Source: Candidatus Liptonbacteria bacterium
Lineage (GTDB): Bacteria; Patescibacteriota; Minisyncoccia; UBA6257; 2-01-FULL-56-20
Direction: 5' to 3'
NCBI GenBank assembly: GCA_016182105.1
Contig: JACOXZ010000004.1
Span: 1 to 37,153 of the forward strand
Length of the DNA: 37,153 bases
Positions 33,274 to 33,748 of this stretch are shown here, piece by piece. Every line of letters begins with the position of its first letter. Positions within the stretch are counted from its first letter, which is position 1. The position numbers and the translations under genes were made by a program. The notes under the pieces were generated by a model that saw nothing but the letters and a program-made list of their open reading frames with translations, had not been told where the DNA came from and made no database searches.

Positions 33274-33551
33274 GTGGCTTTATCTTAAAGGTAAATTATT
33301 AACTTATCAATACTTATGTCGGGCTACCCGGATTCTCCCGCCTATTGTTCGAGCGGAGCGAGATTACAATGGCGTGGATCCCGCACTCTCTATTTAGTCA
33401 AGAACTCAGATTGATGCTTACAACAATAGGCGGGATCGCGCCAACTCTAACCTCGCTTGCGCTCGGAGAGTTGCGGGAGAACCGGGACTCCCGCCGAGGG
33501 CGGATCCGCCTCTGGCGGAAAATCTTCCTTCACCCCGTTAGAAAATGTTAG
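33274..33551 (-). ncRNA. GC-rich structured intergenic region of about 278 nt between tRNA-Phe and tRNA-Pro. It has a long-range 13-bp helix (CCCGCCTATTGTT … AACAATAGGCGGG) and several local hairpins (CGGG-CTA-CCCG, CGGGAG-AACCGGGA-CTCCCG, CCGCC-GAG-GGCGG, CCGCC-TCT-GGCGG). Candidate ncRNA of unknown identity.
   Basis: Inverted repeats seen directly. No RNase P, tmRNA or SRP signature motifs were recognised by eye. The overlapping 68- and 81-aa ORFs look spurious. Confidence 0.3.
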
Positions 33552-33622
33552 TCGGGCTGCTGGGAATCGAACCCAGTCTACCTGCTCCCAAAGCAGGCGT
33601 ACCACCATCATACGCCAGCCCG
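33552..33622 (-). tRNA. tRNA-Pro (anticodon UGG). It is flanked by the inverted 13-mers CCCCGTTAGAAAA (33533-33545) and TTTTCTAACGGGG (33628-33641).
   Basis: Hand fold: the acceptor strands CGGGCTG / CAGCCCG pair, the anticodon arm is CCTGC-TTTGGGA-GCAGG, and the T-arm is TGGGTTCGATTCCCA. Confidence 0.75.
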
Positions 33623-33748
33623 GTATATTTTCTAACGGGGCAAGAAAGACTCTCTCGCCTCGCTTACGCTTCGGCGAAGCGGGTGCTACCATTACACTAT
33701 AGCCCGCCTTCGCTTCGAATCATACGCGAACGAAATACCTGTTGCAAC

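Follow-up and report, generated by a model that had tools for sequence, protein, structure and literature searches.

In this work, we have analysed a stretch of 37,153 bp (the window), which is a complete contig from a metagenome-assembled genome of Candidatus Liptonbacteria (Patescibacteria), and have focused on the perfect inverted repeat that brackets its tRNA-Pro gene. We consider it probable, at roughly 60%, that a short non-autonomous mobile DNA element has the two arms of this repeat as its terminal inverted repeats, and that the tRNA gene between them is a cassette nested in a resident tRNA gene, which it replaces. The repeat is 14 bp long according to both sequence reading and a repeat finder, with CCCCGTTAGAAAAT at 33533–33546 and ATTTTCTAACGGGG at 33627–33640. 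The tRNA-Pro(tgg) gene on the minus strand is placed at 33551–33622 by ARAGORN and at 33552–33622 by the Rfam tRNA model, and a spacer of 4 nt separates it from either arm. The original prediction had described 13-mers that flank the gene with only a few nucleotides of spacer. The short spacers are borne out, and on recount the arms are indeed perfectly complementary, but their length is really 14 nt, and the second arm, though correctly placed around the gene, ends at 33640 and not at 33641. In addition, the complementarity extends outward into the flanks of the bracket, where UCUUUCUU pairs with AAGGAAGA. The bracketed unit consists of the following parts.

33627 to 33640, minus strand: 5' arm in the tRNA sense, one proposed terminal inverted repeat (minus strand CCCCGUUAGAAAAU)
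33551 to 33622, minus strand: the proposed cargo, a complete tRNA-Pro(UGG) gene in which CCA is not encoded (ARAGORN, Rfam; 51.4 bits with the tRNA model RF00005, above its gathering score of 29)
33533 to 33546, minus strand: 3' arm in the tRNA sense, the other proposed terminal inverted repeat (minus strand AUUUUCUAACGGGG)

The 8-mer CCGTTAGA within the arms occurs 8 times in the window, while 1.02 copies are expected, and none of 100 shuffles got to 8, so the repeat of the bracket is not a matter of chance. All eight copies are arranged in four inverted pairs with a separation of 86–97 nt (9349/9461, 26966/27082, 31178/31292, and 33534/33639). The only thing that could speak for a chance complementarity beside a tRNA gene is the shortness of the repeat. 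Against it stand this 8-fold enrichment, the same bracket around 113 tRNAs from metagenomes (counts from the metagenome scan and the genome scan, here and below, are among the matches listed), and the same bracket at the orthologous locus of L125, and we regard this explanation as practically negligible.

The bracketed tRNA-Pro is not an isolated gene. It sits in the anticodon loop of an outer Pro-like tRNA that spans 33319–33707, the parts of which can be recognised one after another, in the tRNA sense, as listed here together with a site upstream of them.

33719 to 33747, minus strand: TTGCAA-17-TATGAT, a site resembling a promoter, immediately upstream of the outer 5' half (consensus match only)
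33683 to 33707, minus strand: 5' acceptor strand and D arm of the outer tRNA (GCGGGCTATAGTGTAATGGTAGCAC), with homologues in the outer 5' halves of L121, L125, and L144
33653 to 33682, minus strand: 30-nt GC-rich insertion from the outer D arm to the anticodon stem, absent in L121, L125, and L144
33641 to 33652, minus strand: outer position 26, anticodon-stem 5' strand AGTCT, and loop remnant with junction TTCTTG (together GAGTCTTTCTTG)
33521 to 33532, minus strand: junction and loop remnant TGAAGGA, then anticodon-stem 3' strand AGATT
33487 to 33520, minus strand: outer variable-loop region, swollen by the GC-rich palindromic insertion CCGCCAGAGGCGGATCCGCCCTCGGCGG
33479 to 33486, minus strand: T-stem 5' strand CCCGG and the first three T-loop bases TTC
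33336 to 33478, minus strand: insertion of 143 nt into the T loop of the outer tRNA, with TCCCGC/GCGGGA at its bounds (sequence, repeat finder)
33319 to 33335, minus strand: rest of the T loop GAAT, T-stem 3' strand CCGGG, 3' acceptor strand TAGCCCG, and discriminator A

When the four insertions are removed and a standard loop is imposed, ARAGORN accepts the remaining outer body as a tRNA in 61 of 64 variants. The 143-nt insertion itself holds a nested 14-bp inverted repeat (TCCCGCCTATTGTT/AACAATAGGCGGGA), and the site at 33719–33747 may be regarded as a candidate promoter for the whole nested unit. At the bracket, the window reads TTCTTG, the arm beginning with C, the arm ending with G, and TGAAGG, and these flanks (GAGTCTTTCTTG on one side and TGAAGGAAGATT on the other) match those of eight other Pro(UGG) cassettes.

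We have further searched for the bracket in other organisms with two scans. In the genome scan, one genome per species was searched with the pattern CCCGTTAGA-N78–108-TCTAACGGG, which yielded at least 120 loci, overwhelmingly from Patescibacteria, but also from Omnitrophota, Planctomycetota, Deltaproteobacteria, and a few other candidate phyla. Since a few hundred chance matches are expected in the genome collection under a uniform random model (our own estimate), these matches needed an independent validation, which was supplied by their flanks. In the metagenome scan, perfect 9-nt arms were required and, additionally, a T-loop motif between them, and 128 brackets were obtained. ARAGORN finds a complete tRNA inside 113 of these 128, while only 2 of 133 brackets from the genome scan contain one. 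The cargo types include Ala(CGC), Val(CAC/UAC/GAC), Pro(CGG/UGG), Thr, Leu, Gly, Arg, and Gln.

At the tRNA brackets, the left flank is composed of a D arm and the 5' strand of an anticodon stem. The right flank has the 3' strand of such a stem, followed by a variable loop and a T arm. The bracketed tRNA thus sits within the anticodon loop of another tRNA gene, with which it is co-oriented. For some of the Thr, Val, and Arg brackets, the outer D-loop is used rather than the anticodon loop, and the outer anticodon is then intact and identical to the inner one. Confidently tRNA-like outer halves are co-oriented with the inner tRNA at 92 of 110 loci and anti-oriented at none. Compared with the inner tRNAs of other loci, 87 of these 92 outer genes have the same amino-acid type, and 67 have the same anticodon. 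The junction is stereotyped as well: TTCAC before the first arm and GCAAG after the second are observed 30 times, the reverse complement (CTTGC and GTGAA) 12 times, together with close variants. In L144, the D arm and the anticodon stem are common to the inner and outer tRNA-Pro, and compensated changes set apart their acceptor stems (CGGGGCG vs CGGGGTA) and their T stems. The suggestion of the original prediction that a tRNA gene was the target of the element holds in the sense that a tRNA gene was hit, but this was the outer gene, and the tRNA-Pro is the cargo.

A related arrangement has been seen at 7740–7925 of L125, where a tRNA-Arg(UCU) lies within the anticodon loop of another tRNA-Arg(UCU) between different, GC-rich arms (CCCGCCTGCC.../...GCGGGCAGG). 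Nesting in a gene of the same type is thus not confined to the CCCGTTAGA arms.

Judging from sequence comparison, the outer tRNA gene is probably dead. Its anticodon loop keeps 2–4 bases of its own on the 5' side and 1–3 on the 3' side, and no single excision at the nested loci rebuilds a 7-nt anticodon loop with the expected anticodon. The inner tRNAs are far more alike between loci than the outer ones, and the outer copies are nearer to the inner ones than to other outer copies. This pattern indicates independent decay of the outer copies from a conserved functional sequence, and on this comparison the outer copies are decaying remnants. Local duplication was rejected as the origin of the inner tRNA, as the inner tRNA of the same locus is the best same-type match of the outer one in only 14 of 75 cases (5.9 expected).

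The state of the outer gene also bears on the idea of an intron-like element, in which the outer tRNA is functional and the cassette is removed at the RNA level, by RNase P/Z releasing the inner tRNA or by RNase III cutting the helix; the two halves would then be ligated or serve as a tRNA in two pieces, by analogy with the multi-intron and split tRNAs of archaea. This idea can draw on the window, where all the outer stems are complementary and the four insertions fall in loops or linkers only, on the outer anticodon stems, which differ between loci by two-sided compensatory changes, and on the outer acceptor stems, 38 of 70 of which are paired at all 7 positions (for T stems, 41 of 62 are fully paired). 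It also agrees with the many tRNA introns that Patescibacteria tolerate (PMC13011429). However, besides the failure of any single excision, there is no bulge-helix-bulge, as the junction forms a continuous helix bulged by 1–2 nt or else a 2x2 internal loop (CA/CA); the outer copies diverge more than the inner ones, and many of their stems are broken. No group I or group II intron model matches, and within 32950–34150 no Rfam intron match appears at the gathering threshold or at E <= 1. In addition, the elements almost never lie within open reading frames (ORFs), where spliceable introns could be: excision would restore a long ORF for only 7 of 113 elements, which means that they are not tolerated within genes, and this speaks against splicing. 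Overall, we find the intron-like explanation distinctly improbable.

The same arms are not restricted to tRNA genes. The consensus of the whole family is Y-CCCGTTAGA-NNN...NNN-TCTAACGGG-R, in which the core 9-mer and the Y:R pair are common to all copies. The arms are perfect over 13–14 bp, and the elements are 96–126 bp long, contain no ORF, and are dispersed in multiple copies (4 in the 37 kb of the window, and several in many loci). In the plain form, ~90 bp of AT-rich filler stands between the arms. In 96% of copies, a Y adjoins the left arm and its complementary R the right arm, which makes this outermost base part of the repeat. Beyond it, we have observed an exact 4-bp direct repeat at 90 of 138 plain elements, compared with 11.3 on average, and never more than 21, in 1000 permutations of the flanks. 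The consensus of this duplication is TNNA, with TGAA and TTCA being the commonest. It is the reason why the flanks look like ATGAAT...ATGAAT, since the left side is A, TGAA, and the T of the element, and the right side is the A of the element and TGAA.

The plain elements are usually placed where the terminal R and the duplicated TG recreate a start codon; for instance, in ATGAAC...GTGAAG pairs the last base of the element is the first base of the regenerated start codon. Correspondingly, for 78 of 133 elements exactly one of the two sides adjoins an ORF start, counting ORFs of at least 60 codons. The interiors are diverse, and a subterminal hairpin, where present, lies gene-proximal in 21 cases and distal in 5. 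The other three inverted pairs of the window are plain copies, each filling the gap between two co-directional minus-strand genes, and the arm closest to the downstream gene directly adjoins its ATG.

9348 to 9462, minus strand: plain copy between an aminotransferase gene and an HtrA-like protease gene; flanks A-TGAG-T...A-TGAA-A, proximal arm adjoining the ATG
26964 to 27084, minus strand: plain copy between a solute-binding-protein gene and a pilin-like gene; the TGAA duplication keeps both the upstream TGA stop and the downstream ATG
31177 to 31293, minus strand: plain copy upstream of a 100-aa gene; TGGG duplication (ATGGGT...ATGGGT)

Related loci differ at these sites. In L124 there is no element upstream of the 100-aa gene and the two orthologous genes abut, while in L121–L123 an inverted-repeat module with different arms takes its place; in L122, the junction between the solute-binding-protein gene and the pilin-like gene contains no element but a plain spacer of 57 nt. 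Overall, the plain copies show the hallmarks of mobile elements of the kind known as miniature inverted-repeat transposable elements (MITEs).

Several other explanations for the plain elements were tried and rejected. The HIP1 context of cyanobacteria was considered, as GCGATCGC is present in two elements, yet it is not enriched over the window (3 copies vs 1.1 expected). A conserved leader peptide starting from the distal ATG does not fit, since the frames differ among the three window copies. A DNA uptake sequence is contradicted by the target-site duplications and the identity across phyla, and an invertible promoter switch is superfluous given the duplications, with no recombinase being linked. 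An internal sigma-70 promoter was also looked for, and no minus-strand match was found in the two elements within 26800–34200.

Some modules of similar kind should be mentioned here. At 5796–5821 of L016, a 29-nt hairpin made of two arms only, with its own 4-bp duplication CGAG, is located inside a full element. In the window, other modules of ~100–130 bp with different perfect inverted repeats are found at 18312–18450 (AAGGCTAAGAGATTTTTT), 21176–21322 (ACCCCGCCCTAATTTTGCT), and 33336–33435 (TCCCGCCTATTGTT). Two of the three open with the (Y)CCCG of the main family, and the module at 21176–21322 adjoins a GTG start. These three may represent sister families.

Besides the target idea, the original prediction took the arms for a paired RNA helix, possibly a precursor-processing stem that encloses the tRNA. 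The minus-strand RNA from 33660 to 33515 does fold as proposed, with the arms paired and enclosing the cloverleaf: it forms a stem of ~28 bp and an intact cloverleaf at −76.3 kcal/mol, compared with −44.1 ± 3.9 for shuffles (z = −8.25). The paired helix is thus physically plausible and probably a substrate of RNase III, and in such a folding model cleavage of the helix in a read-through transcript is possible as a by-product. What has to be decided is whether this RNA function is what conserves the repeat, i.e., whether the leader and trailer of tRNA-Pro have evolved pairing so that RNase III frees the pre-tRNA.

Apart from the fold, a processing stem agrees with the retention of the bracket at tRNA-Pro in L125 and at seven metagenomic Pro(UGG) loci, and with the G.U-containing pairs that the flanks add to the helix in the orientation of the window. 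It agrees as well with the one A by which the window and L125 differ in both arms, a compensated change. However, when nine Pro(UGG) cassettes are aligned, none of the 12 arm pairs varies, although all five pairs of the outer anticodon stem and the stems of the inner tRNA change on both sides. At arm positions 10–12, which do vary, Watson-Crick pairs account for 87–96% of copies and G.T for just 1–4%. Relative to the tRNA, the unit of junction and arm is found either way round, and the two orientations are not equivalent as RNA because the G.U pairs of one become A-C mismatches in the other. Moreover, the identical arms bound the elements without tRNA, with 4-bp duplications, at protein-gene starts.

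The orthologous loci also bear on this question. In L125 (68% identity in the S1 protein), the same bracket is kept at the orthologous locus with 13-bp arms and an intact-looking outer tRNA. In L121 (72% S1 identity), the tRNA-Pro and the outer 5' half are kept together with a decayed 5' arm (CCCCGCACTA), while the 3' arm and the outer 3' half are gone. That is, the bracket that the original prediction wanted looked for around related tRNA-Pro genes is kept in one relative and absent in the other. The tRNA-Val genes of the window and L125 show the same nesting, again with decayed arms. Overall, an arm sequence that stays invariant indicates that a protein recognises it, and in the simplest case this would be at the level of DNA. 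The sequence data point to a DNA-level mobile cassette rather than RNA pairing as what keeps the repeat, so that the helix can form but would not be the reason for the repeat, and we consider a dedicated processing stem unlikely.

The copy of tRNA-Pro in the window has some peculiar features among its homologues. It has G8, C9, G14, and G21, while the eight homologous cassettes have T8, A9, A14, and A21; that is, the near-universal U8-A14 tertiary pair is lost. Its score is 51 bits vs ~62 for the copies of L144 and L125. With the tertiary pair lost, this copy may be impaired or unusual.

Recognition at the DNA level could also take another form. The arms may be half-sites for a host tyrosine recombinase (Xer-like or integron-like), or a folded single-stranded hairpin site, by which cassettes enter and leave loops of folded DNA such as those of tRNA genes. 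In support of such recombination sites, arms joined end to end make a lox/dif-like palindrome with a 6-nt RTNNAY spacer, as seen at 7781–7805 of L031, where tandem elements share one hexamer (TCTAACGGG-ATTCAT-CCCGTTAGA). The strict Watson-Crick covariation at arm positions 10–12 suits a DNA hairpin, every target in a tRNA gene is a loop, and the tRNA cassettes mostly have no duplications and show asymmetric junctions, as in systems with single-strand exchange. The window also holds a XerC/D-like gene. On the other hand, the exact duplication is 4 bp and not 6–8 bp, the outer positions of the hexamer match in ~50% only, the target flanks are unlike the arms, and no dedicated integrase is linked to the elements. 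The box order is also the reverse of that in integron attC, and attC was rejected as a candidate: it needs R'' (RYYYAAC) 5' of R' (GTTRRRY), but GTTAGA...TCTAAC is read here on both strands. Recombination sites of this kind are in our opinion about as doubtful as the processing stem.

The XerC/D-like tyrosine recombinase gene (21744–22614) is apparently split into two overlapping ORFs (21744–22337 and 22324–22614), which could be a frameshift or a pseudogene.

Although we prefer the reading as a mobile element with a nested tRNA cassette, a number of observations weigh against it. Firstly, the flanks of the window bracket are CTTG and TGAA, without a 4-bp duplication; only 11 of 124 brackets in the tRNA set have such a duplication, and the junctions of the tRNA cassettes are asymmetric, with TTCA on one side and CAAG on the other. 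These facts imply that the insertion route of tRNA cassettes may differ from that of the plain elements. Secondly, random insertion followed by selection cannot explain the location of nearly all tRNA cassettes in cognate tRNA genes, because survivors in intergenic regions should then dominate, and targeting of some kind is required. Homologous recombination through the outer halves was rejected as a means of spread and does not fit either, because the outer anticodon stems beside the junction are lineage-specific. Thirdly, the perfectly paired stems of the outer tRNA in the window, with insertions in loops and linkers only, could also mean that the outer tRNA is still under selection, and the compensated one-A change between the window and L125 is also expected of a selected helix. 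Since perfect 9-nt arms were demanded in the metagenome scan, the decay of arms is not measurable in this set. Finally, the machinery is missing from what was searched: among ~250 fetched loci there is no pair of arms 350–3500 nt apart that would mark an autonomous partner, and no large ORF beside orphan arms; the window has no transposase domain, and in a viral scan only 3 viral contigs carry the element, for which reason a phage vector was rejected.

Bearing these points in mind, the mobile-element reading would proceed by the following steps. The plain element would insert with a 4-bp TNNA duplication and would survive mainly at stop/start junctions, because its last base (A/G) and the duplicated TG rebuild ATG or GTG. 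The cassette at 33533–33640 would have brought a complete tRNA-Pro(UGG) into the anticodon loop of a resident Pro-type gene, co-oriented with it; the resident gene would thereby be split and lose its anticodon, and the cargo tRNA would take over. Transcription would start from the promoter of the resident gene, possibly the promoter-like site at 33747–33719, the arms and flanks would fold into the ~28-bp helix, and RNase P, RNase Z, and the CCA-adding enzyme would release the tRNA-Pro.

The location of all the outer-tRNA insertions of the window in loops and linkers hints at a structure-specific mechanism, which possibly uses single-stranded DNA. Going one step further, we can speculate about a class of replacement cassettes of ~110 bp, which would enter the loop of a cognate tRNA gene, destroy this gene, and supply their own copy from the promoter of the victim, so that the host could not lose the cassette. 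A folded hairpin would enter a loop of folded single-stranded DNA, and a recombinase, possibly encoded by the host, would recognise the invariant 13-bp arms across phyla. This extended proposal is only tentative, and we would rather bet against it.

The present elements can be compared with several known systems. Correia elements of Neisseria are MITEs with terminal inverted repeats, a short duplication, hairpins cleavable by RNase III, and insertion polymorphism. Like these and other MITEs, the present elements measure ~100–150 bp, end in terminal inverted repeats, and lack ORFs, and most of the plain copies have a short target-site duplication; there are many dispersed intergenic copies, co-transcribed with their neighbours and containing long hairpins of the RNase III-cleavable type, and the insertions are polymorphic between relatives. 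Unlike in Correia elements and MITEs, no cognate transposase or autonomous insertion sequence was found in the loci searched, the 9–13-bp ends span several phyla while the interiors are highly diverse, the elements are in precise register with start codons, and a complete tRNA gene is the cargo of one sub-class. In the Bacillus cereus group, mobile insertion cassettes hold passenger genes between inverted repeats without a transposase. They are similar in having inverted-repeat ends around a functional passenger and no transposase, but the passenger here is a tRNA of 72 nt in a cassette of ~110 bp in total, the cassette sits in a gene of the same kind and replaces its function, and most tRNA-bearing copies have no target-site duplication.

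As in the RNase III stems of rRNA and some tRNA precursors, leader and trailer pair in a long helix around the mature RNA, but the helix sequence here is invariant and shared with the elements at protein-gene starts, and it decays in orthologues in which the tRNA is retained. Among archaea, disrupted tRNA genes include those of Thermoproteales, with bulge-helix-bulge introns at several positions, and the split tRNAs of Nanoarchaeum, with complementary leaders of 12–14 nt. The resemblance lies in the insertions in the D, anticodon, variable, and T loops of one gene, and in a 13–14-bp helix that joins two halves. In contrast, the host here is bacterial (the window has RecA, FtsK, S1, and PNPase genes), a bulge-helix-bulge is lacking, the anticodon cannot be restored, and the insert is another tRNA of the same type.

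Integrative elements with tRNA genes as their targets bring along, in attP, a 3' tRNA segment as a replacement. The present cassettes likewise insert into tRNA genes, often in the anticodon or T loop, and compensate the damage with a tRNA sequence of their own, but they supply the whole tRNA, leave the resident gene split on either side, and have no integrase or other cargo. The closest paper that we have found reports group I introns within Patescibacteria tRNA genes and covers only these (PMC13011429). Those introns share the phylum and the target region, the anticodon loop, with the present cassettes (PMC13011429). However, no group I fold is found here with Rfam, the unit is ~110 bp long with perfect inverted repeats as bounds, and it substitutes for the host gene instead of restoring it. 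No description of the present arrangement was found in the literature on the motif, on MITEs of the Candidate Phyla Radiation, or on nested and split bacterial tRNAs. The architecture is widespread and, as far as we could find in the literature searched, undescribed.

The surroundings of the bracket show additional traces. The genes of the window are chromosomal and ordinary, including those for ClpB, FtsK, RecA, PNPase, S15, GyrA, S1, SHMT, and small pilin-like proteins, the last being typical of this bacterial group. Within the window or around the bracket, other known RNA families were checked, and only tRNA is above threshold. The tRNA-Val(UAC) at 33943–34015 is preceded by an outer 5' tRNA fragment (GGGCGCGCTTAGCTC, 33860–33874), an insert of ~48 nt, and a decayed junction of the D-loop type (CAGCTTGC-CCCGCCATA, 33923–33939), while neither a 3' arm nor an outer 3' half is visible downstream. 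From its sequence, the region 33860–33942 looks like an older nesting event with eroded arms. Beside the intact tRNA-Phe (33199–33273) are two tRNA-Phe fragments (33031–33044 and 33141–33156), one of which copies the 3' end (TCTGACCCGCGGCA, minus strand) and the other of which is an antisense copy of the T arm; an 18-bp perfect hairpin (33159–33200) lies between these fragments and the gene. GC-rich hairpin-forming pieces with a GAGCG/CGCTC flavour are found in this tRNA cluster at 33044–33075, 33350–33370, 33453–33470, 33653–33682, and 33880–33910, and two of the five are insertions of the outer tRNA.

Insertions of other kinds occur in the relatives. At 7342–7724 of L121, a tRNA-Phe(GAA) has a 310-nt insertion in its anticodon loop, adjoined by a small HNH-like ORF, which may be a group I intron of the kind reported in Patescibacteria. 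In L125 (1–2989), precomputed Pfam data show GyrA to hold an intein that has a LAGLIDADG domain, while the GyrA of the window (28428–30872) has none.

If the reading as a mobile element with a tRNA cassette is correct, it would have several implications. Carrying a complete spare copy would be a third way of living in an essential gene, in addition to self-splicing, as by introns and inteins, and to restoring the end of the gene, as by integrative elements. It would account for the many tRNA 'halves' and odd tRNA clusters in Patescibacteria genomes; such halves confuse the annotation of tRNAs and the counts of tRNA complements in metagenome-assembled genomes. An invariant 13-bp signal common to Patescibacteria, Omnitrophota, Planctomycetota, and Deltaproteobacteria would imply an enzyme that recognises it, and this enzyme could serve as a genetic tool in organisms for which there are almost none. 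Finally, the rebuilding of start codons at stop/start overlaps would let ultra-compact genomes accommodate transposons.

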